Positions 24,131 through 60,404 of a stretch of 64,000 nucleotides of DNA are shown one piece after another. Location of the stretch: the NCBI GenBank assembly GCA_008632985.1, contig QPGO01000204.1, forward strand, positions 62,001-126,000. Reading direction: 5' to 3'. The DNA comes from Psammoneis japonica (lineage: Eukaryota). The position numbers and the translations under genes were made by a program. Each line of letters starts with the position of its first letter. Positions within the stretch are counted from its first letter, which is position 1. The notes beneath the pieces were generated by a model. The model was not told the origin of the DNA, did not search any database, and saw only the letters and a program-made list of their open reading frames with translations.

Positions 24131-24252
24131 ATGGGCCATCCGAGTGGAAATCGAAGATTGGCGCCTTTTGGTTGGCAAAGCGCTCTTGCCAGTGTGTGTG
24201 AGTCGCAACGGGTTCAAAGAAAGGGCATTGTTTCTCCCATTTTTCTACAAAT

Positions 24253-30060: not shown

Positions 30061-33000
30061 CACTCGCCCCCCACCGAGCAGATTCCACAAGCGCTGTAGC
30101 GGATGAACGACACGTTCATTGATCTCAAAAAGCCTGCCGCCGACGAACGAGGCTCGGTGACGCTCATTGCGGTGGCTTCTGTGAAATCCGTGGTCCTCAT
30201 TCATTCTAAGTTCTCTCGAATCAACGGCTTTTCAAGCTAGCTTGACTTGACCATACAAACAGGAAGAAACTATAAACGTATTCATAACTCTCCAACAATC
30301 CTACTCGTCGGGGAGCTCATCCACGCCATCGTCAACAGGAGCTCCAGCTAATCCAGTTCGCAAACCGAACCTCACCCCTTCACCATATTCGGTAACGTTT
30401 TCAACAAACTTCTTTTTTCTCAAATCTTCCTTTTCTTGTGCCTTCTTCTTTGCAAATGCCGCAATTGAGTCCGTGATTCTCTTATCATTAAAGACGCGGT
30501 ACTTCATCATCCACGGCATGAGAGCAACGACAAAAAGCTGCCTCCAACAAGAGCCAGCCTCAGTGCAAAGTTCTTCCCGTGTTTGAGCTTCATCATGTAC
30601 ATGGTGCCCAAACGATCGATATACGGATGCCGGTGAGCATCATGCCATAACAAGTCTTTCTCGAAATTGAAAGGCACGTAATCGAAACCGTACCCCACCA
30701 GGTTTACCTCTTCATCAAGAAACCTAGCGTCGATCCTGCCAACCCAAAACGCCGCTGCTAGAATGAATTGCGTGAATCGCCCAATCAAGACACCACCACC
30801 CAAGCCTATAGGTGAGGATTGCTTAGTCAATCGTAATACCAGATTCACGATGAGCGGTCGGTCGTACCAATGTGCCAGCATTTCAGAGCAAGGAGAGTCA
30901 CGTTTGCTGCACAGGGTCGAGTCCGACAGTAAGCCGCATAGAATTTCTTTCGACAAACCATTGTCATTGCCATTTTAAGTACAATTGTAATCGTTAGACC
31001 AACCCCCCACGCAACCAATAGAATCATAAAGTCCCGCGTGAACTCCCAAGCGAATAGAAAGACTACCAGCCCTACCAAGGCAAAGAAGATTACACTGCTT
31101 CCAATCATTGCATACACCGCATCTAGTCTCACAAAGAGAAAAAGAGAGAAAAGTTAGAGAGGGTCAACAGAGAGCACGCACTCCGAAACACGATCAAGAG
31201 GTACTCACTACCAATGTTCAGATAAACAGTATCTGCATTCTTCCGGTAGGTGTTGAAAAGTCTCGACGTCAATGACGGTTTTACTCCGCTACGGTACTGC
31301 AAAGTTGTTCCCGTTGCACTAGATTTCATAAACGAGGCAGAGAAGTGAAAAGAAACATGAGTATGTCATAATGACGCAGATGACAGCTATCAATTCAACA
31401 CGAGCAACTTATTACCTTGGCAGATAAATGAGCATGATGCACACCATCACAGCAATCAGAACAGCCGTTGCCGGGTAGAATGCGGCATAGACGACTTCCC
31501 GCGTTGGCACTATTTCGTACACCCAATCTGGCAAATCCTCATACTCTTCCAGGGACTTAGTGGCATCTTCTGCAGCGTTAGCGACTGCCTCGGTAAAAGT
31601 AAATGAGGCGTAGGTTAAGGCAATCGCCAGAATGATTTGCGCTGCTTGAATGATGTAGATACGTGAATTGATCCATACACCTTCAGTGTCGAAAAGTTCG
31701 GCGCTTAGGATTCGTTTCCATGTCCAAATCAGACCACCACAATTCTCGAACCTCTCGCCCCGAAGAACAAAATTCAACATGGTCTCATCTGTCGCTGAGC
31801 CACCCTTAAGATTGGTAATGATACTTTGTGATGGATTCCTTTCGCCGATCACAGGATGCAAAGCGTGCGCATTCTTCATCATTGCGCTTAGTTTTCGAGT
31901 GCACTCCATCTTGGTGCGGCGACAACCACGCAAATTCGAACTTGCAAAGAAACCCTTGAAAGTGTCACTTTTACTCTTACGAATTCGCCGTTTTCCAACC
32001 ATGGACTTTATGAATTGAATAACGAGCGCGAATAGGACGGCATTTCCAAGAGCAAAAGTCAGATTCTGGTAATTATCGTAGTTGCGATCATTCACCGTTG
32101 ACTCGGCATTGTTATACGGTTGTTCAGAGTTGTTTCGGTAGTAGATCACTGTCACGTACGGCACAAATGTGAAGACTGCTCCACAGAAGAAAGCAAACAA
32201 CACTACCTTGGGACTTGCAATAACCGGGGTGTTACCAAAACTCAGAGGAATCATGATGATGAGTCCTGAGATAGTTAGACAGCAAGCAATATAGATCCAG
32301 GAAACGACAGTTTGGCCCAGTTTGCAGCCGAATGCATCGCCACAATCTGCGCGTATTCCCTCAATCTGTTGATAAAGGGTGGTGTATATAAGAGCTGTGC
32401 AAACAAAAAAGGCCCAAATAAGGGCAGCCATGGCGGCAGAACCATGGCAATCGACAGCAAAGTCAATACTTGGCATCATCATTGGATACTTGGCTATGTA
32501 GCGATCCTCTTCTTCGGGATCAATATCACCTTTCTCGGCAGCTGAAGCATCTTTTGTCAGATTTGCAGAGGTGGCGGCCTCTTTCTCCACAAGTTGCTCA
32601 GCCTCCACCATTTCCTTCTCTTGAAAACTGTCGATTTTCCAGACATCAAAGTGTGGCGTTGTGAGCTTGTCTTCAATTCCGACCTCCCATTCGGCCAAGT
32701 CGGACTTGAGCGCCGGTACGAATGCCTCTTCATCCATAAGAGCTCCCTCGCCACCAGCAGCATCGACCATTTCTGCAATTAATTTTGTATCACGCGCTCG
32801 TTCGTGCTCGCCCCCGGCTTCGAGGAGCCTTACCACAAAATCAGCAGAAACGGTGGGTGGAGCACCTGTGCTCTCACCATGATTCGGCTCCTCTGTACCC
32901 GGCTGCTCGTTGAGTGCCCGAAGCATTATGGCCAAGACATCCTGGATGATACCCTCAGGTTTTGGCCTCAGAGACTCTTGTTCCTCTTTCTTTCGCTCAG

Positions 33001-33192
33001 CCTTTAATACCATGCGCTCAGCTTCACGCTTTCTGTACATGGCGATAGGATTCTCTCTACCGGTACAGATAGAGGACGAGGAAGAGAGTTCTTCTCTCTC
33101 TATACTCTCTCTCTCTCTCTCTTTCTACTCTCTCTAGTAGTAGAGAGTACTGTAGAGACTCTCTAGCTAGAGAGTCGACTTACCTACCTCTT
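30061..33192 (-). pseudogene. Segmental duplicate of 18978-22077 (3' two-thirds of the STRA6-like gene), cut by a transposon at 33193
   Basis: Near-identical over ~3 kb. 1-bp deletion near 30569, altered splice acceptor near 31122-31132, simple-sequence inserts at 33050-33185. Confidence 0.92.
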
Positions 33193-34889
33193 CACTGCAC
33201 GCGAGAGGTGGGAAATCCGACAATGGCCAAAATGCCGTTCGTTCTCTCGAAAACTGAGGCACGTTCCCACCCCGATAATTTCGGCCGTAAAATAAATATA
33301 ATTTCGTTCTACACAAAATTCCTGTAGAAACTCTCGTACAAGAAAAATCGCACGTCTGTTTTCCATCCGCCAATTTACAGCCGAAATTATCAGCAAATTA
33401 CGACGACCGTTTTACCCAGAGAACAATTTACTGGATTTCAATTTTTTTAATGGATTGATTGCCTGGATGAGGCATTTTGGGTAATATAATAACCGAATTA
33501 CTCCGAAATACCAGAAAACGACCTTTTTTACAGGATTTTTCCTGGATGCCTTGCATCGTCCGTTTTTCCGTTCTGCATGCATACGTGGGGCACAGCTTTT
33601 CTCTCACTTTTTCTATTGTTTTGTGGTCGCTCATAGGTCTACCCGGCACCCATTGCAACGACGGCATGAACACCGCTATGGACTAATGTGACTATGGAAA
33701 AAAATGATACTTGCAGTGGATTTGTTGCTACTCCTCACCTCTTGGGTGTTTCGCGACTTTTGCTCCCAGAGAGGACACTGACAGGACTGCCGCGTCTGAC
33801 ACAGCAGCATTCACAATCAAGCTCGGCTTCGGACTGCAAAGGCAAGAACAACAAAATTTGCTAATGACAGTGTCGAAAATGTGATGGTAATGTTTGTTTG
33901 TTGTGCACATCTCATGTTTTGGGCGTTTGATGATTTTTGAGTGTGGCAGAGTTTGCTCCTCACTGTTTCTCCGGTCTCGTCGTCGCTCACAGGTCCACTC
34001 AGCACCCATTGCAGCAAAAGTGCCAAGGTCATTGCGGACCAAATGGTTGTTAAAAAATGCATCTCAAGCCGGGGATGTGGAACAATCTAGAAATGTCAAC
34101 GGTTGCAACCTTTGGTCGTGCCTTCAGCACTGGGGAGCAGCTTCTTGTTTTCTTGTCAAGCTGGCGGAAGTGCGATGAGATGCTGACAATTCTTTTGTCC
34201 AGTGCAATTGTTTGGCACCATTGAACATAGAACTCACAATGACAATCTCAAACAGGTGCTTTAGAGCTTGTCAAAGTTAGAAGTGGTGCAAGTCATCCGT
34301 CTGTTTTCGCCGCAAGTGGCGCGAATGTTTGGGCTCTGCTCAGGACACCTGTGAGTGCTGCTTTCCATGCCAAAACATGTGAAGTTGGCATTGGCACATT
34401 TTCTGGGGTTGCACTCGGTGACGCTCATGGTTGAGATGCCGCATTGAGATGAGCAGAACTTTCAACATTTTTTTGTTCATGCCGTCGCACCCGACCTCAC
34501 TGAGGACAGACGGCCTGGATCGCGCGAAAGGGGCGCCCAGGGTGGAATTTCTTTTGGCTCCGAAAATTCCACTGTGCCTTCTACCTGAGTGGAATAAACA
34601 GTGGATGTACGGCAGATCTTTTTAGAAGATGCCAACACCGCATTGACAGTTCTGCGTACGACAGCTCCACTTTTCAGCAGAAAAATGCCACTTGGGTAGA
34701 ATTTTGGGTGTGACGGTGTGGCACAGAGACATGCCCCTCGGATGAGCGTCAACTGTCATCAATTCATTGCGCACCTGCCATGCACGACTCACCATGATGG
34801 CACACAGCAGCTGCAGCCCTCATTCTCAATCTCTTTCCTTGCTGGGTTTGATGCAAACAATGACAGAATGACACAGCGCTGGCAACCTC

Positions 34890-36900
34890 AAAGGCTTGAT
34901 TGCAGTTTCAGTGTGTTTCTTGGCTCAGCAGCCAGTTGTGGTGGCAGAGCAACCTCTGGTTGGTTGTGCATCAGAGAAACCTGGCGCAACAAGAAAGTGG
35001 TGTGAGCCAGCAGAAAAAGTCACTTCTGCCAAAGTGCTTGCACCCTCAGCTTCTGAGCTTGCTTTCCATGCACCAAGGAACAGTCTCTCAAAGGGTTGAG
35101 CACAGTTTGAGTGGTTTGTTTGACTGCATTTGTGGTGGCAGAGCAAAATCAGGGCACCCAACAGAGATGCCTGGTGTGGCAAAATGTCAGCCAACAGAAA
35201 AAGTCTCTCGTGCCAAATTGTTTGCAGTCTCAGCTTCTGAGCACACAGCTCATGTCCCAAGAAGCAGCATCAAAGGCTTGGTTGCAGTTTGGGTGTGTTT
35301 CTTGGCTGCAGTTTTGGCAGCAGAGCAGCCTCTGGGTGTGCACAGAAACCTGGTGGCAAAGTGTGAGCCAGCAGAAAAAGTCACTTCTGCCAAAGTGTTT
35401 GCACTCTCAGCTTCTGAGCTCACTTTCCATTTCTCAAGGAACAGTCTCAAAAGGTTGAGCACAGTTTGGGTGGTTGGTTTGACTGCAGTTGTGTGGTGGG
35501 AGAGCAAAATCAGGGCAGCCAACAGAGAGACCTGGTGGCAAAGTGTCAGCCAGCAGAAAAAGTTGCTTCTGCCAAAGTGTTTGTACTTGCAGCTTCTGAG
35601 CTCACTTTCCATGTCTCAAAAAACAGCCTCAAAAGGTTGAGCACAGATTGGGTGGTTTGTTTGACTGCAGTTGTGGTGGGAGAGCAAAATGTGGGCAGCC
35701 AACAGAGAAACCTGGTGGCAAAGTGTGAGCCAACAGAAAAAGTCTCTTCTGCCAAATGGCTGGCAGCCTCAGCTTCTGAGCACACAGCTCATGTCCCAAA
35801 AAGTGGCCTCAATGGCTTGGTTGCATTGGTGTGTTTCTTGGCTGCAAATGTGGTGGCAGAGCAACCTCTGGTTGTGCACCACATAGAAACCTGGCAGCTG
35901 GAAAGTGCAAGCCAGCAGAGAAAGTTGCTTCTGCCAAAGTGTTTGCAACATCAGCTTCTGAGCTCAATTCCCATGTCTGAAGGAACAGCCCAAAAGGGTT
36001 GAGCACATTTTTTGTGGTTTGTTTGGCTTCAGTTGTGGTGGCAGAGCAAAATCAGGGCAGTCAACAGTGAGACCTGGTGGCAAAGTGTGAGCCAGCAGAA
36101 AACAGAAAGAGTCTCTTCTGCAAATTGGTTTGCAGCTTCAGTTGCTGAGCACACACTTCACATCCCAAGAAGCAGCCTCAAAGGCTTGATTGCAGTTTGG
36201 GTGTGATTGCGGCAAAGTGTGAGCCAACAGAAAAAGTCTCTTCTGCAAATTGGTTTGCACTCTCAGCTTCTGAGCTCACTTTCCATGTCTCAAAGAACAG
36301 CCTCAAAAGGTTGAGCACAGGTTGGGTGGTTTGTTTGACTGCAGTTGTGGTGCAAGAGCAAAATCAGGGCAGCCAACAGAGAGACCTTGTGGCAAAGCAT
36401 CAGCCAACAGAAAAAGACTCTTCTGCCAAATGGTTTGCAGTCTCAGCTTCTGAGCACACATTTCACATCCCAAGGATCAACCTCAGTGGCTTGATTGCAG
36501 TTTGGGTGTGTTTCTTGGCTGCAGTTTTGGCAGCAGAGCAGCCTCTGGGTGTGCACACAGAAAAATGGTGGCAAAGTGTGAGCCAGCAGAAAATGTCACT
36601 TCTGCTGAAGTGTTTGCATTCTCAGAAGCTGTGCTTGCTTTCTGCACAGCTTGGTTGTTGGGTTGGTTTTGGTCAGAACTGTGGTGGCAGAGCAGCCCAT
36701 GTGTGCACAGAAGCACTTGGTGGCCAGTCAGCCACACAGCTGAAAAAGGTGCTTCTGACAAGTTGTCCACTCTCCAAGCTTCTGAGCACACTGTGCACAC
36801 CCCCCAAGGCGCACAAAATTCAAAGTGTTGATGAGCAGCCACAGTTTGGTTTGGTTGTGTGGCCACACTTGGGCATGCTTGAGTGTTGAGCACTGAGCAC
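34890..36900. repeat. Tandem array of ~180-bp units (~11 copies, two subtypes)
   Basis: Anchor GGCAAAGTGT(G/C)AGCCA(G/A)CAGAAAA at ~34998, 35178, 35355, 35537, 35717, 35900, 36079, 36211, 36391, 36570; degenerate at ~36722. Confidence 0.92.
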
Positions 36901-37219
36901 TGACTGCTTCAACCACAAACCGCCACAACCAACCTGCCCAGCTTGTGTCAAATGCAGCAATTCAAAACTGGTTGTGATTTGTCATGTGAAATGGCTCCAC
37001 AGCTCCACCCATCAGTTTGCACTGGCATTTTCATTAGATTGCTGGGAGGCAAGTGACTGCAGACTGCCCATGCCTCTAATCAGAGAGGTTGGCTTTCAAG
37101 TGCACTCCTTCTAAAGTGTGGTGCATTGTGCATCATCTCAGTGGTTTGATGTGGCTGTGTTGCAGGCTGAAAAACAACCATGGCAACAACATCAATGACA
37201 GCAGCAGGAGCAGCAGTGG

Positions 37220-37266
37220 CAACAACAACAACAACAAGAACAACAAGAACAACAACAACAAAACAA
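37220..37266. repeat. Imperfect (AAC)n microsatellite
   Basis: Direct reading. Confidence 0.9.
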
Positions 37267-39714
37267 TGAAAAAATGGGATTGCACCGCTGTCCATGTCAA
37301 CAATGTTGGTCCCTGGCAAAAAAGGAGGGAAGACAAATTAAATTGCTGGTGGAGTGCAAATGTTCAAACATGATTCACTCTCAGTTTTTGAGAGGTCACA
37401 GTGTGAAATGACAATTTTCATGGCCAGCAAAGTGATCTGATTTGCTCAAGAGTTGTTGGCAATGCAATTTTGGTGGTGAAGATGGGGGGGAAATGTCCAC
37501 AACCTCCCCAGCAGTTTCCTCCAAAGCCATCACAGTTGCACCCTTTTGATTGGTCATTGTGTCAGAGTCAGAGTCAGAGTGAAGACCCAACTGACTCTCC
37601 TTTCTCTCCAAATGTTTCAACAGATTTTTTGTGCAGCTCTTGATCTCCAGAAGCCAGAAAGTCAGCAACAAACCTCCTTGTGAACTTTTTGGGGTGGAGA
37701 ATGTTCTCCAAGTGGCACTGCAATTGTGATGGTGAAGATGGGGGCAATGTCCACAACATTCCCAGTTTCCTCCAAAGCACCATCACAGTTGCACCCTGGT
37801 TTTGGTTGGTCATCACATCAGAGTCAGAGTGAAGACCTGCTGAGTCTTTTTTCTGGCTTTTGTTCTTCCTGCTTGTGCTCTGCTCTTGCCTGTCTTCTTT
37901 CCAACTTTTTGGCTCTTTGATCCTTGCCTTTCACTTCTCAATCACAGCACACCTGACTTCTCTGCCTTTCTTGCCAAACCAGACCTCTCTTCTCTGTTCA
38001 ATGACCTGTCTGAGGACATTTGCCAACTGGCTGCACTTCTGATCTCTGAGGCTTGCTGCAACCTGAGCCACCTGCAGCTGCAGGTGGGCATCCTTGTTGT
38101 CTGAAGCACCACTCTCTTTGCCTGTGCCATCATGAAACACAGTGCCTCATGCCAAGATTTGTTTGCTGGTGCTCTTTCAAGAAAAATGTTTGCCATTTCA
38201 CAGTTTGAGAAGAAATCTGGTGGGTTGGTCAACCCTGCTCTCTTGTCCATTGCTCCAAGGAATCTGCAGGCACTTCCTTTCCTGATCTGAATGAGGGAAG
38301 TCAGCAGCAGCATCTGTCATCTCTGAACATTTGCTCTGGTTGTTGCCCCTGGTGTGACTTGGTGGTGGATGATCTCCACATTTGAAGAGCCTGGGCCCAC
38401 ACCCTCTGGACAAGGCACCTTTGTTTGCATCTAGCATGCTGGGCTGTTTTCACAATGTGGTTTGTTTGCTGGTCACAAAAAATGCAGAGGTTCCAGGCTG
38501 AGTTGCACACTTTTCACAACTCTCCCCTCTGTGGTTTGCACCACTGCTGCAGCTGGTGGACATTCTGTGTGCTTTCACACCCACAATGTGCGCCCTGTCC
38601 CTTTGAGCAATCCTGCTGCAGATCACATTGCAGCTGAGCTTTGAGCAGCACAGAAGATGGGATGTCTTTGACTGCAGGTCTGGGAGAGGAGGGGCACTTT
38701 TGAGCATTTTGTTGCAGAGGGGGCTCTTTGCTCATCACAGCAGGTCATCTGACAGAGGGGACAGTGTTGGGTCACCTGCTCCAACAGCTTTTATTCCTGC
38801 CAAAAAGAGAGGGAAGATAAATTGGGCATGTGGTTCTTGTGTGCAAGTGACATTCAAATGCGCCGCCTGCCTCCTCACCATCAATTTTTGAGAGACATTG
38901 ACACGTCCAGCACTTCAAGTGGGCCCCACATTGGACACACACACAGTTGCATCTCTGCACGCCATTTCAAATTGACAAAATTTTGAAGATGACGTTGTGT
39001 GTCCTTGAAAATGTGAGATTAAAAATTTCAACCAAAAAACAAAATCAAAGCTGTCATGAGCACAACCCCATCATGCAGAGCATCCAATGAATCACAATGA
39101 ATCCTTTCCTGCAAGTGTCAGGAGGATGGCTCACACCACAAGGCAGAGATGCAGCACAAGCAATTGTGCCCTTCTTGCCCTCACTTCTGCTGGGACAAGA
39201 AAACCAAGGAAGAGGCTTGGAGATTGAATGCTTTCTGCATTGAAGAGAGCAAGAAACTGCGCAGTGTGATGACTTTGTTTGTTGAATTGCATTTTAATTG
39301 ACTCTGTGTGTTGGTGTGCAGCATCGCAGTTTGTCAGCAGCACACATGCGTCGCACCATGTGTGGTTGCGAATGATGCTGTAAACCAGGAACATCATCCA
39401 GGAATTGAGGAGAGCACTGATTCCTGGTGTTCCAGAAATGGGCCGTCCCCAGAAGATTTGACAAGAAAGCTCAAACCCAGACATGTCAGACATCAATTTG
39501 GCATCCAGGAATGAAAACCAGTGACATCCCAGAAGGAAGACCAGCAACTGTTCCAGGAAAAAGTGAAAAATCCAGCAATGTGTGCAGGAAAACCCCACCT
39601 GCCCAGTGATTCCTCCAGAAAATGCACCGTGCAACATCCAAAGTCACACGCAAAGAAGCGCATGAAGAAAATCCTTAAAAAGAAAGAACACATCTGAAAC
39701 TTTTGCATGCAGTG

Positions 39715-40034
39715 TTGAGCATCTTCTTCGTCTTGCTCACAGCTGCTTCCGTTGACACCGTCTTGAAACTCTTTTCCGGCATGAGCAACTGCAGGAACAA
39801 GAACAATGGTGAGAAGCTGGGCTAAATCCAGATGCTCTCAGGCAAATTGTTGGGATTCTCCATGTCTTTGTTTGGGTCTTCTGTCTCTTCCTCTTCCTCT
39901 TCTGCCAGCTCAGCAGCAAGCTGTTCTTCATTTGCTTGCTGAGCAATTTTCTTGCCCTCTCAGCCTTGAGCAGTCACTTCTTCACAGCCCCAACTCCTTT
40001 CCCAATGCATTTGCCTGTGCCTTTTGGGAATCTG
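39715..40034 (-). pseudogene. Distal piece of the duplicated STRA6-like gene (= 22076-22394), hypermutated
   Basis: Colinear with 22076-22394 and resumes exactly where the 30061-33192 copy stops. Confidence 0.9.
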
Positions 40035-41184
40035 GTGGGTCGCCGAGACTCACGATGGAGAGTGGGTCTGAGCCGACAGCTCCAGGACCCTGACACAGCA
40101 TCTTGAACTTGTGTGTTGATGCAAACCCTGCATCAGCGGAGAGCATGGTTGGCGATGTCACAATGATGCATGCTCGCATCATGGCATTTTTGCATTTGCA
40201 CACAAATGCAAACTGAGCTGCATTTGTTCACAAATGCTCGCAGTTGCTGGAAAAATCCTGAACCGATGCACGCCGTGATCACTCATTCACATGTGTGCAC
40301 ATGCCCTGAATGCGAACATTCTCTTCTCAACGCATGTGATGACATCATCACACATCACACACATGCAACACATCCCGCAGTGCCACTGATGCAGGGGGTG
40401 TGTTGATGCATGCTTTTTTGTTGGTCCGCGTTGCTGTGGCATGCGCGCTCAACAGAAGATGAGTCTTGCAAGCATGATGCGGTCTATGTTTCTATGTTCA
40501 ATTCCTGAAAGGGATGCAGGGGGTGTGTTGACGCTTGCTTTTTTGTTGGTCCGCGGTGCTGTGGAATGAGCATTCAACAGAAGATGAGTCTTGCATGCAC
40601 GATGCAGTCTGTGTTTTTATGTTCAATTCCTGAAAGGGTTGGTGGTTGCTGACATGTCTTTTGCAATCCTCAGGACAGGATAAATCACAATGCATGCAAA
40701 ATGCTCCTGAGACTGCGTCTGGCCGTGGGGAGTGGGGGGCGGGGAGGAGGTGTACGTAGGTCGGGAAAATCCCACTCCCGGCTTGGGAGGTCTGCAATTG
40801 GAAAAATCCGAGAACCTGATTGCCGACAGACGTGGTGAGCAGAGGGCAAATGAATACTGTACCTTCATTCACGATGAGAAATATGAACGGGGGGTTCGCA
40901 AATTTCATTCGAACCTTCAATTACCGATATGTAAGTGAAAAGATAGCGGCATGCTGTTTTCATTTTCTGCGATGAGCGATGATATGACAGCACAAAGACG
41001 ACGGCCCATTCATCATCGTATTCGTATGTACCACCTCTCTTCTCTTTGTTACTGTGGAAGCAGCTACTCTAGAGCACCCTATTACAACCCTCTCTAGCCA
41101 GACGACGACAAATCATACTGTAGTATTGGAAATCCTGTGGATACTCGACATTTTCTCTCAAAACAAAACACATACTCAATAATC

Positions 41185-44396: not shown

Positions 44397-46429
44397 ATGT
44401 CACTTCTGGAAGCGCCGCGACGACGGAAAATGACGACGACACCCGGCGCTGTGCCTCCTCAGATCCCATCTGCGTTGGAGGAGCTTCGCACACCCTCGAG
44501 CTGCTCCAATTCAGAGGATGCGGCAAGCTGTCTTTTCTTGTTCTGCACACGTGAGGACGAAATCTCTCAGTTGCTCACCGAAGCCGGATTTCTTGAGACA
44601 ATCATTGGTGCAATGGATCACGATGGGCAAAGTGTCGACTTTCACTCATCTCTCATTCATGTGATCCACATTTTCATTTGGTCGAACGAAGATGGTTCAA
44701 AAGAAATCCTTGAAAAGGGCGGTCTCAAAAGAACAATTTTTCTCATGGACACATTTGTCACGGACGAAAGCGTTCAGACGGCGGGAGTTCAGTGCCTTTA
44801 TAACCTTTTTCACCTCATGCTCAGAATCAGTAAGACGAGCGCGGTTGAAATGGGGACAAGCATCATGGAATGCATTGTCACAGCCATGGAAATTCACAAA
44901 GACTCAGCCTCGATCGCTAAATTTGGTTCTGGAGTTCTAGCACAGGCGTCGCTCTTTCTGGAAAATTCGTTTCATAATGATTTGATGCTTCGGTGCAAAA
45001 GGTGCCTCGAGCATTTCCTCTCGAACCACCAACCTCATGCTGAGGAAGGCAAGGAGAGGACAGTTTGTGCACGGTTGCGATCTTTGACAGAATGCTCTCC
45101 ATCCGTCGTGAGCCAGAGAAACTGAGCAATCCATCTCTCGGTGCGTCGGAGGCCACGCAGCTCTTTGATGCTGTGGCATTCTTTGCTGAGTCGGATGTGT
45201 CAAGAGCACCAGTCGGCGGCGGTTTTTTTGAAATGGCCACTGCTTCATTGAATGATGGTGGACAGAGCCAAGAGGTCTGTGAACGACTTTGTTTGATGCT
45301 CACTTTATTCATGGGCTTCGACGACAAAGGCAAGGGTTGCACGGAACAAATCCTTTGCACTGGCGGCCTCGAAAGCGCTCTTTGTTTCGTCAACAGTTTC
45401 CCCAAAGACGAAAGGCATCAGAGATCGGCGCTTGAGCTTTTCCGCTCTTTCTGCGTGAATGGCATTGATGCAAAAAACGGGGCGGACATTGCGAACACGG
45501 TGCTCAAAAGCACAATCAACATCATGAGCAACCATGAAGACTTGGCGCTTGTCTTCAGGCCATCTTGCCAGACGATTCGTGAGGCGTTGGCTGTTCTTGA
45601 CTTCTCTGTCAATGACGAAGCGCTCTTTGACCAATGCATCAACTGTCTTTCTGCTGGGGTTGCGAAGCATTGGAAAGACATTGAATCTGTCAGAGTCGGT
45701 CGATCTGTGCTGGAAGGTTTGATTGGAGTGGACGCTTCAAATGAGGTGTTGGCAAAGTGCTCTATGGCACATTTCAACTCCCAACTAGAGGAACTTCGTA
45801 ATCCATCTCGCAATTCCGTGAAGGCGCTCGCGGCCGCACAGGAGCTTTGCTCCGCAATCGACGCGGAAAAATTCCCCCCGTCCCTTGTCGATGCTGATTT
45901 TTTGGATGCAATCACCCGTGCCATGAATCACCTTGGCCAGTCCGGAAGGTTCTATTTTCCTTTGTTGAGGATCCTTGTAAATCTCATTTCACTGGAAGAC
46001 GCAACTGAGAAAATCGTTGAGATGGGAGGCGTCGCAAGATTGCTTGGTTTTGTGAAATCCTTTGATGCTCTTTACGTCATCCAACATTTTGCTTCCGAGA
46101 AGGGCGGTGCCTTTGCTGCTGCCATTGTCAAGAACGTTGCAGAGGCAATGCAAGCCCACAAGGACTCGACAAAAATCTACTCCACGGGTTGCAAGGCACT
46201 TGAGCGCTCGTTGAAATCGATTGGATGGTGTGTTGAAGATGAAAAATTGCTCAAGAGAGTTGTGGACTGTGTTTGGCATGGCATTGCAAATCATCCCTGC
46301 GATGACGACTTGCAGTTGCGAGGTCGCAGGCTGCTGCATGCATTGGTTGGAGACGAGGCTGCCAAAGAAATGATTTCACATTCTGAGCATCGTCATTGTG
46401 CCGATGCTTGCTGCAGTGCCGCTGCTTGA
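44397..46429 (+). pseudogene. Armadillo/HEAT-like repeat protein with three ~220-aa modules; frameshift near 45065-45125; partly TpA-depleted
   Basis: Modules start LEELRTPS / EKLSNPS / LEELRNPS and each contains I...GG...., AM..H and C..L patterns of ARM repeats. Confidence 0.6.
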
Positions 46430-46959
46430 GAGGCACAGTTTTGAACTCCGGGAATGCTTTGTGCTTTTATTTAGATTTGCAGTTTTTTGTCCTTTGGTGG
46501 ACTAAGACGAGCTGCGGCACCCAACCATCCGTTCTTGATCTCTCCTTCCCCATTCCACGAAACAAGGATCAAGAGGGCCGTGCATCCAACCCAAGTCTCT
46601 CGCAGGAAACTGATGGTGGCCTTTGATTTCGACAGACATCCTCTCTGCCAGTGGCTGGCAGCCAGTGGCTGCTGCCACAGTGCCCCCCTGCTGCTGGCTC
46701 TGTTCTGGCTAAAGGCCTGCGCATCCTGCATCACAGTCCTCCAGTTTCAAGTTAGCATCCCGATGTTGAGACATGCCGACACAGATGCTTGCACCGGTGT
46801 TACATTCCTCCTGCTCCTGGCAAAAGCAAATCAGAAATGACTGTCACATGCAAACGAGTGGTCCGCTGAACTTTGAAAGGGCAGAGCTCTAATGTTGCAC
46901 CAGACAGGAGCAGACAGAACGACGAGACTGCTTCAGAATCTAATCAATGAGAACTACAA

Positions 46960-47800
46960 AGAGAAGGCACGGGAAGTGCAATTGCCTTCCAGATCGTTGG
47001 ACAACATGTGCAAAATGTCGAGATTCGCAAGCGATTGGATTGGCAGCCGTGAAATCAAATTGTTGTGACTTGAGTCTGAGGATGCTACAATGTTGAATGT
47101 GATGTCAAGCGGGGAGTTTGACGCCATTGGTGAAGATCGTTGACACATGACAATTGCTTCTTATCCACGCCTGCAAAGCTTGCCCAGCTGCGAAAGCTGT
47201 GAAATGGAAGGCGAAATGGGCCCCTCCAGTTCACAAGCCCGCATGGAGAGCATCTCTTTTCGTTCAAGGCGAGAACAAGAGGTGATGAACGTAAGCGCAA
47301 GGTGCCATGCGACAAAGTAGAGCAGCTCATTCCACTCACCCAGCAACGTTGGCTCGTAAATTGCAGACGGCATGGCACCCAACCAGTCTTCATCATTGAG
47401 GTTCAACGCAACTGGAATGTGCAAAAAGGTGTGGGGGCATCAGCACGAGCCATCCAAAGACAATGCCAGGATGAACAAGACATTTGCCTAGCTGGTTGAA
47501 ACTGCGAAGCTTCATTTGAATGTCAGCAATGGAGTTGCGTGGCAGATTCATCGAATGCATCGTCGATGATTCATGCAGTTCTTCGGGAAGAGCTCCACCA
47601 ATCCGATTTCCTTTGTTTCCAGTGTCGAGTTGAACAACTTCTCCCATGGAGTTGCAAGAGACAAACCTCCATTTGCATTCACCCATGTGGGGACTCAACC
47701 AGAAGCAATCGTTTGTCCACGTTCAGTCTCTTCCAGCAGTGTGACAGAGAACAGCCATGACATGACGTTGGACGAGCTTCTTTGCATCATCGCTCAGGCC
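46960..47800 (-). pseudogene. Leucine-rich-repeat (LRRNT + plant-type LRR) gene remnant, TpA-depleted
   Basis: ECKWRFVSCNSMGEVVQLD...NRIGGALPEEL, LGAMPSAI, CELEGPISPSISQLSQL and NDLEG in broken frames. Confidence 0.7.
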
Positions 47801-49399
47801 GCATTGAGCTGCCCAACCAATTTGTGAAAGTTTGTCTGTGTTCACTTGCCAACAACGTGCCTTGCTTTGAGGGGACTCAGTTGTGCCAATGACAAAGATG
47901 CCTGGGGTTCAGAGGAGAGACTTCAAACCCGCTTGCACCTTCTTTCTAGATTGCCGCACACATTGCCCCAAAGAGGCAGGTGGAAGGGTTGTCTGCTGCC
48001 ACCACCCACAAAAATCATGTGTGTGCACAGATTGCTGCTGCAAAGCACACCAGATTGGGTCATTTGTTGACTGTTGACCAGCACACCCAGTGCCGCCACA
48101 AGGCTCACAAGGACATGCAAGAATGTTGGCGAGCCGGTGGGCTGAGAACAAGAAGTTCTCTAAGTTCCTGACTTCATCTTTGACCCCAGGTTGGAGACCA
48201 GGAAGAGTGTGGTGGATGGAAACCATGTGGTGCCAAGCTTGCAAGCTTTGAGACTTGCCAGCAGCATGTCAAAGCTCTGGTCAAGTGTGCCAAGAGCCGG
48301 CACAGGGCCAAAACTCACACAACTGCCTGTGTTGGTCAACATGAAAACAACTGACACAGAAAAAGCAAAGTGGCAAGCAAGGTGCAATGAAGGAAATGCC
48401 TGGGATTGGGGTGGGCTGCTGATGAGTGATGAGGCTGGCTCTGTCTGCTCTGCAGCTCCAGTGCATGCATGTGTGACCCCCTCATTTTTTGGAATGCTCT
48501 GCGTGACAAAGTCTCACAGAAAAATCAAACTTGCAGATCCAATGATGATCAATTGCGCACAGCATCAACAAAGCCAGCACCCTTCACCATCCAACAGATG
48601 CTGTCAAACTTGTCATTGTGGAAGTGTGCCATGTGGCATTGGAATGAGGAGAATCGGTGGTCAATTCGTTCCATTTCTTCCAAGACTGAACGGGTGCAAA
48701 ATTGTCACTTTTTTGTTTTTTGGTTGGTGCTGACATGCATCATTGATTGTCATCATGCACTCAGCTTTGTTGCACCTTGCAAGCTTTGGTGTGGAAATGT
48801 GTGTGTCTTGTGGTTGTCTGGGCTGTTGTTGCTGTCGTGAAATGGTTCTGTCATTTGTGAGAGTTGACTTGCCAGACATGTGCCCACACTTGCGGGTGGA
48901 ACTCTTTCTTGTTGTGATGCAGGTTCTCAGCCCACACAGTGCCAACAACAATGATCAAAGATGCAGTGGATGCAGCAGAGCCATTGTTGCTCTCATTGCC
49001 TGCTTGTTTTCATGCTTGCATGCTGCTTGACGACAGAGCCTTGACTGCTTTGACAAGCCCTGCTTTTGAAAAGAACAGAGAAACTGAGCAAGATTGAACA
49101 TGGCAACCAATGCAAGGAGGAGCGGTGCAGACCTGGCCATTTTGTTCTTTCCGGGGGGGGGGGGGGGGGGGGGGGAGATGATGCCAGCCCCGATGAGAGC
49201 TCAGTGAAGAAGGGTTGTTCAAGCAGTTGTCAGATTGGAGCTGTTGACAGGGTGTGTCATGTTCCCATTTTCCTTGTTGCTGACACAACACATTGTGTGT
49301 CTTCAAGGTCCACTTTAAATCATTGCAAAGCCCGGCAAATCAACCAAAGCGGTGCCCTCCCAGTGGTGAATTCTGTCACTGCAAAGTTTCCTGTGACAA

Positions 49400-50080
49400 G
49401 CACTGCCTGAATTGAATGTTGATGATGGAATGGATGGGTGGTTCTTGCATGTCCTGTGGCAACAATGATCCACACTGCACCCAAACTGCAGGCTTGGTCC
49501 CAAATGTTGGAATCGCAGATTGGGCATGAGAAAGTTTGCAAAATGCAGCCATCATCAAGAAAAGAGCAAAATCTGGGGGGCTCATTGCCGTCAATGGCGC
49601 AAGAGAGGGTGAGCTCATCCAGGAGCACACGGGTGAAGTCATTGACCAAGAAACAAGGAAGAAATGCCTCGGAACATGGGCCAGATCATCCAAACAACCC
49701 GCACTGCTGTGTGATGTGTCTTGACACCTGAAGGCACATTGATGCCATAAAATCCTGCAGGAAGAACATTGCTCCTGTTGGTGAATTCCTGTGACACAAC
49801 TGCCATTTTGACACAAAGGATGGTGCCAGTGTTGAGGCACCTTGGCAGGATGGGAGTCAGAGGAAAACAGGAACAAGAAGTTGCAAGAGCACGCTTTGAA
49901 CGCAACAAGAAATTTCTGTTGGACCTTGACAAAGACAAAGTGCGCAGACGTTGGCATGTTTCCAATCTTGTGCCGGGTGCTGCCAAAGATGAGACCGTTG
50001 CAAGCAGACCACAATTCAAGAGTTTGCAGTGAACAGCAGGCTCTTCTTGTGGCGCATTGTTGTTCTGGGGGCTAACTTTG
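49400..50080 (+). pseudogene. SET-domain (SETD2/NSD/ASH1-type) remnant, hypermutated paralog of ~61180-62000
   Basis: GLIAVNGAREGELIQEHTGEVID aligns to GLVAVNGAEWGELIQEYTG*VID; colinear DNA through TGTTCTGGGGGCT. May extend upstream to ~48300. Confidence 0.75.
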
Positions 50081-50112
50081 AGTGCCAATTAACAGCAAGA
50101 GCATTTCAAAAG

Positions 50113-51010
50113 CACTTTGCAAACCACAAAAACAGAAGAAGTGCAAGTGCCGTACATTTTGACTTTCCCGAGTGTTGCATGTCATGTTTCCTGAATGCAC
50201 GTCACATTTCCTGAATGTTGCACGTTGCATTTCCTTCCCAAACACATTGTGGTTGAGTGGAATCTTTTCAAAACAATGGCAAAGGGAGACCGGCTTTCCA
50301 GCATTGGGAACCAGTCAGGCCGGTGGTCAGAGCATCTGCAGCCCACTCAATTTGAAGAAGCCTGCTGGCAACAGCAGCAGTGGAAAGAGAAAACCAAAGC
50401 AACATTGTGAGCACAATAAAAGGCAATGGACTGTGGCTGCTGGCACAACACTTGCATCTTTTCTGCAAGAGCATTCGTTTCCAGGAGCTCTGCATGTAAC
50501 GCTTTGGAATCAGAGATGATCTCTTCCTTGGAAACAATGGAATTGCTGATGATTGCTGCCCTCTCCTTCTCCAACTCAGCTTTTGTGATGAGGGTCTTCC
50601 TTTTGATCTTCAACATGGCAATCTTTCCGTCCGCATCCATGTTGTCGGAGGCTAAAGCTGCAAGGATCTTGCATTCCCCAGCGGCACTTGAGGTTTAAAA
50701 GCCAATGCCAGAAGGCCTGTTGCTGGCCCAGATGTTCCTCCAGCATCTCTGCTTGAGATTCAAGGTGGAGCTGTTCCTCCAAGTCAGCAATGTTCTTGCT
50801 GATGGTTGCCACCTGCTTCTCCAGCAACTCAGACTTCTTGATGCAAATGCTTCCTTTTAAATTTCAATGAGGCAACATTCTTTTCTCAGCCATCAACAAG
50901 ATGTTCTTTGCATCCGTGTTGTGGAAAGAGGGCGGGGTTGCGGGACAAAGTGCTCATGCTGCCGCAATGTGTGCAACCCTTTCAGATTGCGATGATTCTC
51001 AAGATGGAAG
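50113..51010 (-). pseudogene. TpA-depleted paralog of the repeat + coiled-coil gene unit at 42861-43884
   Basis: 50113-50260 matches 42873-43047. 50405-50458 matches the intron at 43197-43246 (GTGAGCACAAT.AAAGGCAATGGA.TGTGG). Coiled-coil remnants in ORFs 50347..50640 and 50576..50827. Confidence 0.6.
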
Positions 51011-52979
51011 GTGCACACACAGTGCACACCAGGGTTGCATGTGTGCATGTACGCTGTGAGCCCTGTGATGCCCTGGCCTGCCTGCCGGCCTTGCCTGGCC
51101 AGCTGCTGTGAGACCCAGGCCTTGAGGATGGATCATTGTTTTGCGGTCAATTTTATTTAGAGCTCATGCACATTTAAAAATAACCCGGATTTGTTGCACT
51201 GACAATGCGCGTGTTCGCCAAAAAAAAAATCAGCGATGGGTTGAACTTTGTCTGTTTGTGAGACAACATAGAGCGCACATGTGACGGTTGCGACCATGCG
51301 CGACATGTGGCTTGACAACTGCAGACATGTCTGTGGCCAGTCAAATGCCAATCATTGGCATTTCCTGGAAAGATGTGGCTTGTCTGTCTGCCACAACAGC
51401 CCAATTTTGGCGGAAAGTGGCGGTTTGTTGCATGTGACAACCAAGGCAAGCACAACAATTGGTGTTTGAAGGTCAATGCGTGTAGTTCACATGAAGGTCT
51501 AACAGCCCTGATGGGGGCTGGACACACTCATGTGTTTTTGGGGGTGCTCAGAGGCTTCGCAAAACAACACGGGCAAAGCACAGGGAAATTTGAAAATCAC
51601 GAGCCATTTAAAAGAACAGCAATGGGAGTGAAAATGCAGAATGAAGTTGGCGTGCGGTTCAAGAAAAAAAGTCAAACACAAATCCCTCTGGCAATGGCAT
51701 GAGACAAATGATGCGGTTGCAGCCCTGCGAACAGGGTGTGGCAGAAGATCATGCGATCAGTCGGTCAACGCGCCGCTTTGCAGCAATGCGCACCAGAGAT
51801 AAAAGGTCAAGGAAAAATTGCACCAGAATGAGATCATTGCTTTCTTTTGGAGAGGATTTAATGCACCCAAACCGCCACAGCAAGGACAATCACGTTAAGT
51901 GGAGAATTCAAAGTCAGTGCAACCTCTGAGAGAAAATCTTTGCCTCTGAGGGAGAATCTTGTCTTCAACAAAGACTGACAGAATTTCACAATTGCATGGA
52001 CCAGAACAACAGCATGCAGTTCACTGCTTGGAACAGTGATCTTGGTGGGCCAGCAAGTGGAAAAGGGAATGTTCAGGACTTGCAAGGATGAAACAGGAAG
52101 TTGTGCTGATGTGACAAGAAGGTCGTTGGAAGAAATGTCATTCTCGTGTAGAATTGACACTGAATCTTGCACAGAAAAGCCAATCCACGCAGCAAAAGGA
52201 CGGTCGTCAGGTGATGCCAATGGTTCACCACAACAGGGACTGTGCTTTCACCACATGCACAAAGGAGACATGTTAGAAGCCATGCAAAGATAAAGTGGTG
52301 AGTTTGTGTTATGATTTTGCTCACAGTTGTTGACTCATCTTGAAATCTGTGTCTCAGATGTTCTCACTGCTTACACCCTCCCGTCTCTTTTGGCCTTCTA
52401 CAGCAACTGGCTTACAATCACCTGCCAGCATGGCAGTTTTTGGTGATTGATGAACTGTGCAACAAACATTGGGTGTGTTGCCCTGACCATGGCAACGAAC
52501 AAGGAGAGCCAGCATTCAATGTGTGGCTGGCTCGATCGAGCCGAGAGAAAGGATCAACATGTCCAATTGCAGGGTTCTGTTGTGGTGTGCTCAAAACGTC
52601 CCAACAAAAGATTCATTTTACAGTGTTGGATGGCCTTGGGAGTCGTTCATGCCGACAACCGCAATGGCTGCGAAACGATGGAGAGTGCCAGCTCTAGGAA
52701 CAGCCAGGTCTGCTCTAGAGAGGCGCGCAGCCCATCATGCGGCAGTCTGTGTCCCGCGCCCCGGTGCGTGCTTGAAGACAATGGACAAAGCATGCCAACA
52801 ACAACAAAAATGGCGAGAACGAAGAACCATCGATCATCGTTTGTGCGATGGCGCACACGCACACACAAGAGCAGCAATTGCACCTGGAGAGCATCTAAAA
52901 ACAACATTGGAAACATGTGGTAAGTTGACAACGCTCTGACTTTCAGTGACAATGCCATTTTTGAAGTTGCACCCCTCAA

Positions 52980-53234
52980 TGTCAATGTTCTGGGTTTCAA
53001 TCGGAACTCGTGCGCGATCTCATGCGCGTCTCTGCTTCAAGACACACACCAAGACTGGCTCTTGTGTGCTGCAGTTTTTCATTCGATTTTCTCCTCACAA
53101 TTTCAAGATGACAACAGTGCAACAACACCTTTTTTTTGGTCTCATCACCTTGATCTGCCTCTGCCCAGCCAGATCAACCTCTCTTCGACCTCTTCACGTC
53201 GAAATCCCAATTGCTCCGTTCCTGAGTCATTGCA
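52980..53234 (+). repeat. 5' LTR (contains no TpA)
   Basis: Aligns end to end with 60139-60399. Confidence 0.95.
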
Positions 53235-53249
53235 GGTTATGAGCCCAAG
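53235..53249 (+). promoter_or_regulatory. Primer-binding site of the internal/half tRNA-iMet type
   Basis: GGTTATGAGCCCAAG directly after the LTR, resembling the Drosophila copia PBS GGTTATGGGCCCAG. Confidence 0.75.
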
Positions 53250-60111: not shown

Positions 60112-60129
60112 TTGATCTCTCACTCGTTC

Positions 60130-60138
60130 GAGAGGGAG
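60130..60138 (+). promoter_or_regulatory. Polypurine tract
   Basis: GAGAGGGAG abutting the 3' LTR. Confidence 0.8.
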
Positions 60139-60399: not shown

Positions 60400-60404
60400 C
60401 TCAA

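Follow-up and report, generated by a model that had tools for sequence, protein, structure and literature searches.

Nearly half of a 64-kb stretch of Psammoneis japonica DNA (the whole stretch analysed, hereafter the window) has been stripped of the dinucleotide TpA, and a process that is confined to discrete blocks and turns TpA into CpA or TpG according to position probably explains both this pattern and a hypermutated gene fragment found at 39715-40034. Five nearly TpA-free blocks, D1 to D5, made up about 29.5 kb (~46%) of the window. The purged DNA contained 127 TpA in 29,526 bp compared to 1,372 in 31,030 bp of normal DNA, and TpA density was 0.24-0.5 per 100 bp in the five blocks vs. 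4-5 elsewhere in the window. The observed/expected ratio (o/e) of TA was 0.07 in purged and 0.61 in normal DNA, that of CA/TG was 1.60 and 1.16, and that of CpG was 0.52 and 1.00, respectively. Among the 16 dinucleotides compared, TA and CG alone dropped and CA/TG alone gained, while AT, AA, and the others were the same. The GC content was 50.3% in purged and 46.3% in normal DNA. All counts and readings come from this one 64-kb window.

The blocks differed in their contents and in the extent of CpG loss. D1 (1..1642) contained four TpA in 1,642 bp, was depleted in CpG and continues beyond the window. D2 (14231..18907) contains the relic of an FG-GAP gene (14402-15373, reverse strand) with no tyrosine in 324 amino acids, and D3 (23069..24878), which begins ~370 bp upstream of the ATG of the parent gene discussed below, contains a Copine relic recognized by a profile match (23480-23944, forward strand). 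D4 (33843..40602) was nearly CpG-free as well and includes the gene fragment at 39715-40034; its TpA density marked 33843-34744 as a transition zone that is incompletely purged. The 15.5-kb block D5 (44420..59958) was depleted in CpG on its left and near normal in CpG across a copia element. Some TpA survives in islands at 44788-44950, 51031-51303, and 52222-52440. Block boundaries were abrupt, spanning tens to a few hundred bp; for example, TpA was dense as far as 44339 and the next TpA occurred only at 44799. The edges ended a few hundred bp short of intact genes and did not follow the ends of elements, and for this reason we read the target as a state of the chromatin or of the position, and not as sequence homology or copy number. 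A Pfam scan of 73 stop-to-stop frames of at least 120 amino acids from the purged blocks gave matches above or near the curated cut-offs only to FG-GAP_2, Copine, RVT_2, gag_pre-integrase, and SH3_retrovirus, and no viral genes were recognized in the purged blocks of the window. The DNA affected by the purge comprised one copia element, repeats and host-type gene relics (FG-GAP, Copine, and the gene fragment), including relics without a second copy inside the window. The block nature of the TpA loss across the window had gone unnoticed in a first-pass annotation of this DNA.

The parent gene of the fragment (20405..22699, reverse strand) is an intact open reading frame for a diatom-specific membrane protein of 764 amino acids without a Pfam family. 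The first-pass annotation had called it STRA6-like, a name that does not hold, as a Pfam scan of the 764-aa product detected no family at E ≤ 0.1 and the named homologs were all uncharacterized diatom proteins. The right-hand piece of a duplicate of this gene (39715..40034, reverse strand) corresponds to parent positions 22076-22394, or residues ~102-208 of the parent protein. The two sequences were 85.67% identical over 321 columns when the window was compared with itself by BLAST, and a global alignment contained 43 mismatches and three gap columns. Our recount agreed with the earlier hand count that 10 of the 11 parental TpA had become CA or TG (7 CA, 3 TG, 1 kept). The 16 parental CpG were thought to have yielded about 13 TG or CA; 13 had indeed changed, but the outcome was TG at 10, CA at 2 (12 together), and CC at one, and three were kept. 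The fragment carries frameshifts and stops, with indels of 1 and 2 bp. Diatom orthologs share the EEYLDLVQLL..PTLARAGKEF residues of the parent, where the fragment shows Y>H, V>A, R>H, and R>Q; because the orthologs match the parent, the fragment is the mutated copy. The substitution spectrum, proposed at the outset as a check, thus runs from TpA to CpA/TpG.

The left-hand piece of the duplicate (30113..33101, reverse strand), which corresponds to parent 19089-22076, lies in normal DNA and has normal TpA, whereas the fragment lies within the purged block 33843-40602. The left piece was 96.4% identical to the parent, retained 112 of 122 TpA and had an unbiased substitution spectrum. Its sequence includes a truncated open reading frame (31412-33040, reverse strand), and the 13 non-synonymous vs. 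6 synonymous codon differences from the parent indicate that constraint was relaxed. Homology to the parent, earlier thought to extend to 33192 in a pristine left half, stops at 33101 (parent 22076), and near-identity is limited to 31296..32495. This segment differs from parent 20289-21488 by one mismatch in 1,200 bp while both of its flanks differ by ~3.4%, which identifies it as a gene-conversion tract and means that the clock of the left piece was partly reset. The break between the pieces is exact: the left piece stops at parent 22076 and the fragment begins at parent 22076/22077, so the pieces are halves of one original copy. The suggestion that both halves share an age is supported by this junction and qualified by the conversion.

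The two gene pieces are separated by a 6.6-kb insert (33102..39714, from the alignment breakpoints). The first-pass annotation was correct that the copy had been split, but its attribution of the split to a transposon is unproven since the Pfam scan detected no transposon protein domains in the insert. Only weak terminal inverted repeats (72-86% over 20-29 nt) were found in 32900-40800. The left 740 bp of the insert has normal TpA and falls where contig depth is high (summed depth of 746-2131 at 33204-34106 vs. 37-200 in most other bins). A 182-bp tandem array starts at 35000, with related units reaching about 36530-36800.

The contrast between the two pieces was large at both dinucleotides. 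TpA was retained at 1 of 11 sites in the fragment vs. 112 of 122 in the left piece (Fisher p = 5.6e-9) and CpG at 3 of 16 vs. 143 of 156 sites (p = 3.9e-10). Divergence outside TpA and CpG was also four-fold higher in the fragment (19 of 262 sites) than in the unconverted flanks of the left piece (23 of 1,261; p = 1.7e-5), and the changes outside TpA included seven A>G on the forward strand. Either the fragment escaped older conversions or the block mutates faster overall, and the extra changes mean either that the process is less specific than proposed or that the fragment is effectively older. Age and gene conversion alone, with the fragment older or the left half re-homogenized and neutral decay biased toward CpG, could draw on this excess and on the 1.2-kb tract with one mismatch, which demonstrates that conversion occurred, as the first-pass annotation had considered. 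We regard this explanation as very unlikely. Gene conversion cannot account for the pattern specific to TpA and CpG in the fragment, ordinary decay at 7% background divergence does not erase 10 of 11 TpA, and the unconverted 588 bp beside the break in the left piece retained 13 of 18 TpA.

A second comparison was provided by a Ty1/copia LTR retrotransposon (52980..60399, forward strand; RVT_2, gag_pre-integrase, and SH3_retrovirus domains), within which the edge of a purged block falls between 59724 and 60024. Its 5′ LTR (52980-53234, forward strand) is purged and contains no TpA, and its 3′ LTR (60139..60399, forward strand) is unpurged and contains 14. The element is flanked by an exact 5-bp target duplication, CTCAA (52975-52979 and 60400-60404), and has a polypurine tract at 60130-60138, from which it follows that both LTRs were once identical. 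The 14 TpA of the 3′ LTR correspond to seven TG, six CA, and one CG in the 5′ LTR. Five of 15 CpG in the LTR pair had become TG or CA in the purged LTR and none had changed in the reverse direction. All but three of the 27 mismatches belonged to the TpA class, to the CpG class or to two CA/TG columns; these two columns suggest that the normal 3′ LTR has also lost about two TpA. Thus, 14 of 14 TpA were lost compared to changes in 3 of ~254 other columns, which gives, as an indirect bound obtained by arithmetic, a per-site loss of TpA that outpaces change in other columns by two orders of magnitude or more. Age and conversion do not produce such a pair, and an origin of the LTRs from different insertions is disfavored by the exact target duplication. 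Runs of one outcome along elements, such as five consecutive TG in the LTR, hint at strand-wise clustering, although the numbers are small.

A difference between LTRs that belong to a single integrated element means that the changes postdate its integration. Editing before integration was ruled out as a candidate by the LTR pair and its exact target duplication. The same evidence bears on ADAR-like A-to-I RNA editing in which already edited transcripts are reverse-transcribed and then integrated, which we consider the least credible of the explanations examined. ADAR favors a U 5′ of the edited A, a preference that the T of TpA resembles, and one of the targets is a retrotransposon. However, RNA editing would not be expected to affect both strands about equally or to reach DNA other than retroelements (the gene fragment and the FG-GAP and Copine relics), and the block edge crosses the copia element.

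The TpA o/e of the copia element was 0.00-0.13 per 500-bp bin. In this young element, the CpG o/e was still 0.4-1.0 while that of TpA was ~0.05. Seven tyrosine columns of the reverse transcriptase (58619-59749) are conserved among 60 homologs; one was kept in the element and the others had become cysteine (three) or histidine (three). Related copia loci from metagenomes served as a control for family composition and say little on how widespread the process is. TpA o/e was at least 0.43 in 79 of the 80 loci examined (80 of 228 confirmed), and one locus (L024) looked partly purged, with a TpA o/e of 0.21 and four of eight conserved tyrosines kept. The ordinary TpA of 79 of 80 relatives indicates that the purge is not characteristic of this copia family.

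In five pairs of normal and purged sequences, 53 TpA had become 25 CA, 21 TG, and one CG, with one kept and five other outcomes. Both strands were affected about equally (25 CA:21 TG). The 3′ neighbor of the changed A was C in 22 cases, T in 13, A in 8, and G in 2, indicating a preference for TAY, although these pair-based counts are small and the p-values (0.035 and 0.012) nominal and uncorrected. The TpA left over in the blocks were enriched in TTAA, CTAA, and CTAG and included no ATAC, compared to 198 in normal DNA (chi-square p = 1.5e-10); this test contrasts unrelated sequences and differences in composition could contribute to it. A bookkeeping of trinucleotide gains and losses between purged and normal DNA was set aside because both CpG decay and composition confounded it. 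Two further candidates were rejected. GC-biased gene conversion does not fit a loss of TpA alone with ApT and ApA/TpT unchanged, and the direction required by RIP-like C>T change in the parent was refuted by the orthologs and by the tyrosine columns of the copia reverse transcriptase.

Duplication is not required. Pairs of duplicates in normal DNA retained 63 of 70 (at 92% identity), 7 of 10, and 11 of 13 TpA, so neither copy number nor homology is the trigger. An older pair in normal DNA, at 80% identity, retained 15 of 30 TpA with changes in both directions, a symmetric pattern that again counts against age and conversion. The proposal that position rather than age or copy number determines mutation is therefore upheld by location, by the normal duplicates and by the LTR pair, and tempered by the greater divergence of the fragment outside TpA and CpG.

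A sequencing or assembly artefact, in which DNA modification in silent chromatin caused TpA and CpG to be miscalled, is also highly improbable. TpA and CpG are both plausible modification sites. Against miscalling, CG and TA outcomes numbered one each among the 53 sites, which fits single hits that destroy their target and not independent miscalls on each strand, and the purged elements carry frameshifts and broken reading frames as well. A contig of 844 bp (depth 37) from sequencing run X1 was identical to 39495-40338, with zero differences, which speaks against an error of the assembly alone; this run is probably the sample behind the assembly of the window and hence lends no independent support.

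These observations are best explained by a block-restricted process acting on diatom nuclear DNA. A 3.3-kb segment (19089-22394) containing most of the membrane-protein gene was probably duplicated, and another 6.6 kb of DNA later separated the copy into two pieces at parent 22076/22077. The right piece, of 320 bp, would then have come to lie in a silent block, and the left piece, outside it, kept its TpA. Within the block, TpA would be converted to CpA or TpG on either strand, with one hit per site and fastest at TAY, until near saturation. CpG would be converted to TpG or CpA more slowly in the same blocks, as expected of methylated cytosine. The same process would have purged the copia retrotransposon, other repeats and host-gene relics. 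What the window itself demonstrates is the spectrum and its direction, action after insertion, the organization in blocks, and independence from duplication; a connection with heterochromatin and methylation, and a part in defending the genome, are proposed.

By analogy with the proposal for Bigelowiella natans, the chemistry is most likely enzymatic adenine-to-inosine deamination of DNA at 5′-TA-3′, possibly by a DNA adenine deaminase. The same block-restricted process might instead act through modified or oxidized thymine (5-hydroxymethyluracil or 5-formyluracil made by a dioxygenase of the TET/JBP type), giving T>C. 5-Hydroxymethyluracil occurs preferentially at TpA in dinoflagellate DNA, and 5-formyluracil leads to T>C transitions. 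Because TpA is palindromic, T>C is indistinguishable from A>G on the opposite strand, and the ratio of 25 CA to 21 TG and the preference for TAY (= RTA) fit both chemistries. In the literature searched, the only published proposal for such a spectrum is an ADAT2-like adenine deaminase that is itself hypothetical, and we consider the thymine route unlikely but a genuine competitor to adenine deamination.

A single description of TpA-specific regional hypermutation was found in the literature, a 2026 preprint on a chlorarachniophyte, and no report of such hypermutation in diatoms was found in the literature searched. The words diatom and stramenopile do not occur in the preprint text. Integrated viral regions of B. 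natans are reported to undergo TpA-specific hypermutation; in mutation-accumulation lines, 230 of 231 region-restricted mutations were A>G or T>C, all 230 were at TpA, and de novo mutations arose at ~1000-fold the background rate (Mettrop et al., bioRxiv 10.64898/2026.01.13.699255). An ADAT2-like DNA adenine deaminase was proposed there as the cause and not shown, TpA-poor coding sequences were enriched in reverse-transcriptase and DDE domains, and ADAR was noted to prefer U before the edited A (bioRxiv 10.64898/2026.01.13.699255). The resemblance covers the change of TpA to TpG or CpA on both strands in discrete regions and a long-term footprint of clustered TpA depletion with CpA+TpG enrichment. 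[quoted passage not shown] The B. natans host is a rhizarian and ours a diatom (stramenopile). The B. natans mutations are de novo and those in the window a fossil footprint; the viral region there has a rho of 0.45, whereas the diatom blocks are near saturation (TpA o/e 0.00-0.1); and the inserts there derive from giant viruses or virophages rather than from copia, repeats and host-gene relics. Unlike in the B. natans material described, TpA loss in the window coincides with CpG decay, and the diatom sequence reveals a preference for TAY and a block edge that falls within a single element.

The blocks resemble the products of RIP in Neurospora and other fungi in that a dinucleotide-specific transition hypermutation ruins transposons and leaves compositionally distinct blocks. 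However, RIP creates TpA from CpA and lowers GC, whereas TpA is destroyed and GC rises in the diatom blocks. RIP also depends on duplication and mutates both copies, whereas the duplicates in normal diatom DNA were untouched and relics that are single in the window were purged. APOBEC3 (C>U on cDNA) and ADAR (A>I on dsRNA) likewise inactivate retroelements by clustered transitions with a neighbor preference, but they act on one strand before or during integration; the diatom changes were two-stranded, post-integration and positional and extended to DNA other than retroelements. Deamination of 5-methylcytosine at CpG of methylated transposons is known for diatom transposable elements (PMC9998398). 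Such decay matches the change of CpG to TpG or CpA, seen at 12 of the 16 sites of the fragment and at 5 of 15 sites of the purged LTR, but it accounts for the CpG part only and is slower than the TpA loss.

The window contains two built-in controls that go beyond mutation-accumulation data, the split gene copy and the LTRs of one retrotransposon that straddle a block edge. Together, they show that the process is post-integration, positional rather than led by homology, and faster than methyl-CpG decay. Our broader proposal is that diatoms run an active chromatin-block mutator that erases TpA, preferably at 5′-TAY-3′, to saturation and outpaces methyl-CpG decay, a reverse RIP defense without duplication, and that its occurrence in a stramenopile as well as a rhizarian would mark it as an old and widespread eukaryotic system; we hold this tentatively, at slightly less than an even chance. 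If true, a major and unrecognized force would shape the composition of diatom genomes and the decay of their pseudogenes and transposons, and the enzyme yet to be found would either deaminate adenine in DNA or modify thymine, a search narrowed by the TAY motif. Ages of transposons estimated from LTR divergence would be wrong in such genomes. TpA-free DNA lacks TAA and TAG stops and so contains long spurious open reading frames that can be annotated as genes, and replacement of tyrosine by histidine or cysteine offers a simple marker of affected elements. With its saturated footprint present in a diatom, the process would reach one of the major groups of marine primary producers, and a deep origin within SAR lineages would be suggested.

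The dinucleotide profile of the window and a segmentation by TpA density defined five blocks nearly without TpA (purged blocks) at positions 1-1642 (D1), 14231-18907 (D2), 23069-24878 (D3), 33843-40602 (D4) and 44420-59958 (D5). The blocks contain 127 TpA in 29,526 bp, compared to 1,372 in 31,030 bp of DNA with ordinary TpA density (normal DNA). Observed/expected ratios in blocks versus normal DNA decreased only for TA (0.07 vs. 0.61) and CG (0.52 vs. 1.00) among the 16 dinucleotides and increased only for CA/TG (1.60 vs. 1.16). AT, AA and the others were steady, which excludes a general drive from AT to GC such as biased gene conversion. The block edges are sharp. TpA was dense until 44339 and then absent before 44799 at the left edge of D5, and dense until 22935/23004 and sparse afterwards at the left edge of D3; at the right edge of D5, the final TpA is at 59724 and TpA is dense again from 60024. 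CpG was strongly depleted only in some blocks (1-1500, 17000-18500, 35000-40000, and 48000-50500) and mildly across a copia retrotransposon in D5; TpA loss is therefore a distinct process and the faster one.

Purged DNA includes relics of host-type genes, namely an FG-GAP repeat ORF with no Tyr among 324 residues and motifs such as GHVRVHE, and a Copine fragment. Genes that look intact (Ipi1_N, TLDc and the parent of a split duplicate) are in normal DNA and the blocks stop a few hundred bp away; the gap is ~370 bp between the parent ATG and the start of D3 on its upstream side, and about 400-500 bp between the end of D4 and the TLDc ORF. Within purged blocks, small islands (34507-34744, 44788-44950, 51031-51303, and 52222-52440) have nearly normal TpA density and may represent insertions of later date, sites that were protected or patches left by conversion. 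At 44286-45125 (plus strand), an ORF weakly similar to ZER1-like/LRR sequences begins in normal DNA and crosses the left edge of D5, and looks like a gene half-swallowed by the block.

The parent ORF (20405-22699, minus strand) encodes a 764-residue protein whose best homolog has 49% identity and whose named homologs are all from diatoms (Attheya, Fistulifera, Seminavis, Epithemia, and a Corethron transcriptome). The name STRA6-like, used in the first-pass annotation, is unsupported, as a Pfam scan of the protein returned no family. Self-BLAST gave two matches to the parent in the same orientation and collinear with it: 19089-22046 with 30113-33053 (96.4% identity, 2,965 columns; left piece) and 22076-22394 with 39715-40034 (85.7%, 321 columns; the fragment, within D4). 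Local alignment prolonged the left match across an 18-bp insertion to 33101, which corresponds to parent position 22076 and corrects an earlier end coordinate of 33192, and the right match begins at parent 22076/22077. The pieces thus meet at one parental position and derive from a single 3.3-kb duplicate whose parts are now 6.6 kb apart (33102-39714). A 34-bp match (97%; 17982-18015 with 30021-30054) is present just left of both gene copies, ~1 kb farther from the parent copy than from the duplicate, and the duplication may once have reached farther left, into what is now D2.

The fragment was altered at almost every parental TpA and at most CpG. Of 11 TpA, seven became CA, three TG and one was kept, in a CTAA context; the 16 CpG became TG (10), CA (2) and CC (1), with three kept. 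These numbers agree with an earlier hand count. The left piece retained 112 of 122 TpA and 143 of 156 CpG, with changes symmetric between the copies, and retention differed strongly between right and left pieces (Fisher, p = 5.6e-9 for TpA and 3.9e-10 for CpG). The fragment has lost 1 bp at one site and gained 2 bp at another, and every frame contains stops. The only block in this region conserved among ten diatom proteins reads EEYLDLVQLLSIILIPTLARAGKEF; the parent matches its orthologs there and the fragment has EHLDLAQLLTIVLVPAVAHAGKEFQ, where Y>H derives from TpA, R>H and R>Q from CpG, and V>A from another change. The fragment is therefore the mutated copy, and C>T mutation of the parent by a process like fungal repeat-induced point mutation (RIP) is rejected. 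An 844-bp contig of a public sequencing run (depth 37) matched 39495-40338 exactly and without a gap. The run is probably from the same sample as the assembly and no library type is recorded for it, so the match eliminates errors confined to assembly, whereas some platform effects would escape it. Real mutation is favored by the CA-or-TG outcomes and by the frameshifts.

The sequence separating the two pieces looks composite. It opens with a (TC)n run and TpA is normal over its first 740 bp. Summed contig depth of the run was 746-2131 over the first segment versus 37-200 in most other bins, indicating a high-copy repeat; the stretch 33204-34400, whose left part has normal TpA and which directly adjoins the purged block, had 10-50 times the depth of most other bins compared. 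A tandem array of 182-bp units (35000-36102, ~6 copies, 74% matches) lies within a block free of TpA and CpG and is followed by related repeat units of 125-180 bp to about 36530-36800. The array has 246-residue open frames because TAA and TAG stops are absent, and these frames matched no family. The proposal that a transposon split the copy is borne out as to a split at one parental position, but neither a transposon protein domain (Pfam) nor a clear terminal repeat was found in the insert, part of which may plausibly be a transposon.

The left piece, described earlier as pristine, is not: its mismatches to the parent are strongly uneven along its length. Parent 20289-21488 and duplicate 31296-32495, 11 kb apart, differ by one mismatch in 1,200 bp against a flank divergence of ~3.4%, with 20 mismatches in the 588 bp adjoining the break, 34 in 1,000 bp of the 3' flank and, separately, 26 in the 200 bp at the outer end. 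The lack of any synonymous change across 1.2 kb marks a recent conversion tract rather than selection. Codon differences between the copies were 13 non-synonymous and six synonymous, indicating relaxed constraint on the left copy, so selection is not what keeps its TpA. Homogenization of the left half by conversion, raised earlier as an alternative, thus applies in part but leaves the TpA/CpG contrast unaffected. Differences outside TpA and CpG were more frequent in the fragment (19 of 262) than in the unconverted flanks (23 of 1,261; p = 1.7e-5), and eight of the 19 were A:T>G:C at non-TpA sites. Either older conversions also reset the left half, or mutation in the block was generally faster or partly off target; neither reading changes the TpA and CpG result.

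The copia element (52980-60399; RVT_2, gag-pre-integrase and retroviral SH3-like domains) allowed the same comparison between its LTRs (52980-53234 and 60139-60399, TG..CA ends). A polypurine tract directly precedes the 3' LTR and an exact 5-bp target duplication, CTCAA, is present on both sides, so the LTRs were identical at insertion. The block edge, between 59724 and 60024, falls within the element, at least about 115 bp before the 3' LTR. The 3' LTR has 14 TpA and the 5' LTR none, with seven TG, six CA and one CG in their place. The 27 mismatches comprise 15 of TpA class, five CpG>TpG/CpA (all five in the purged copy), four in two CA/TG columns, best read as ancestral TpA hit on a different strand in each LTR, and three others. 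The process thus acted after integration, on DNA, and in a position-dependent manner, and by our arithmetic (14 of 14 vs. 3 of ~254) the per-site rate of the TpA process exceeds background by two orders of magnitude or more.

Lack of TpA is not a trait of the copia family. The named relatives of its reverse transcriptase (RT) are all from diatoms (Seminavis, Cylindrotheca, and Nitzschia), and 79 of the best 80 of 228 confirmed related metagenome loci had TpA observed/expected ratios of 0.43-0.90, compared to 0.00-0.13 per 500-bp bin here. At seven Tyr columns conserved in 60 RT homologs, the element has one Tyr, three Cys and three His, and at eight such columns in a second alignment, two Tyr, three Cys and three His. 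The sole conserved Tyr kept in the purged RT (58619-59749) is that of the catalytic YVDD, whose survival may be due to chance. The remaining locus of the 80 (L024, ratio 0.21), a 1.7-kb metagenome contig with a partly purged look, kept Tyr at four of eight conserved columns, and a 555-residue copia RT in ENA (P0084) has no Tyr at all, its 10 conserved Tyr columns being five His and five Cys; purged copies are thus present elsewhere in public data.

Three further normal/purged pairs gave the same pattern as the LTRs and gene pieces (61172-61523/49390-49745, 61784-62001/49867-50078, and 62921-63051/50116-50234). Over the five pairs, 53 TpA became CA (25), TG (21), CG (1) or other sequence (5), and one was kept. 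Near-equal use of the strands with scarce double hits fits TpA-specific mutation, in which a single hit removes its own target, and is not expected from strand-independent miscalls. In control pairs, of which neither member is in a block, TpA was retained at 63 of 70 sites (7892-9416/12615-14054, 92% identity), 7 of 10 (27732-28096/28146-28510), 11 of 13 (42861-43035/62905-63111) and, in a pair of 80% identity with changes both ways, 15 of 30. Unlike fungal RIP, the process is therefore not set off by duplication as such. The proposal that position rather than age or copy number determines mutation was essentially right in that block location matters and duplicates in normal DNA keep TpA, although the left half was partly homogenized by conversion. 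The 92% segmental duplication (with 8870-9147/9606-9887) adjoins the Ipi1_N-domain ORF.

With the changed base of the pairs read as A, the 3' neighbor was C (22), T (13), A (8) or G (2); at sites where the neighbor differed by strand, C won 17:6 and G lost 10:1 (nominal p = 0.035 and 0.012, small numbers). As an independent test, TpA surviving in blocks was examined and was enriched in TTAA, CTAA/TTAG and CTAG, with ATAC/GTAT at 0 versus 198 in normal DNA and ATAT at 1 versus 85 (chi-square p = 1.5e-10, comparing unrelated sequences). Both tests point to 5'-TAY-3' as the probable preferred site. Bacterial TadA has U-A-C in the anticodon loop of tRNA-Arg as its substrate and, to our knowledge, ADAT substrates all have U33 before A34. 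This preference would fit an adenine deaminase but proves nothing.

The feature is a block-restricted, TpA-erasing hypermutation with methyl-CpG-type decay in a diatom; the chemistry and targeting rule of the TpA process we infer. Our full-text literature search returned no description of TpA-specific hypermutation in a diatom. Diatom DNMT4 has been described as a relative of RID, the enzyme of fungal RIP, with unknown function (PMC9998398), and offers a lead on the CpG part alone. The closest precedent is in Bigelowiella natans (Mettrop et al., bioRxiv 10.64898/2026.01.13.699255), in whose full text the terms "diatom" and "stramenopile" do not occur. According to that preprint, 231 of 302 nuclear mutations in mutation-accumulation lines fell in an integrated giant-virus region and a virophage region. 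Almost all of them changed A to G or T to C at TpA, with a rate of ~6e-7 per site and generation. The authors further described 124 clusters poor in TpA and rich in CpA+TpG, and proposed a DNA adenine deaminase resembling ADAT2. The spectrum and regional character are the same, but the blocks here belong to a different supergroup lineage, are saturated, and have a retrotransposon and gene relics as targets. We rate this case as a new instance of that very recently described kind of hypermutation, to which it adds block-boundary and motif information.
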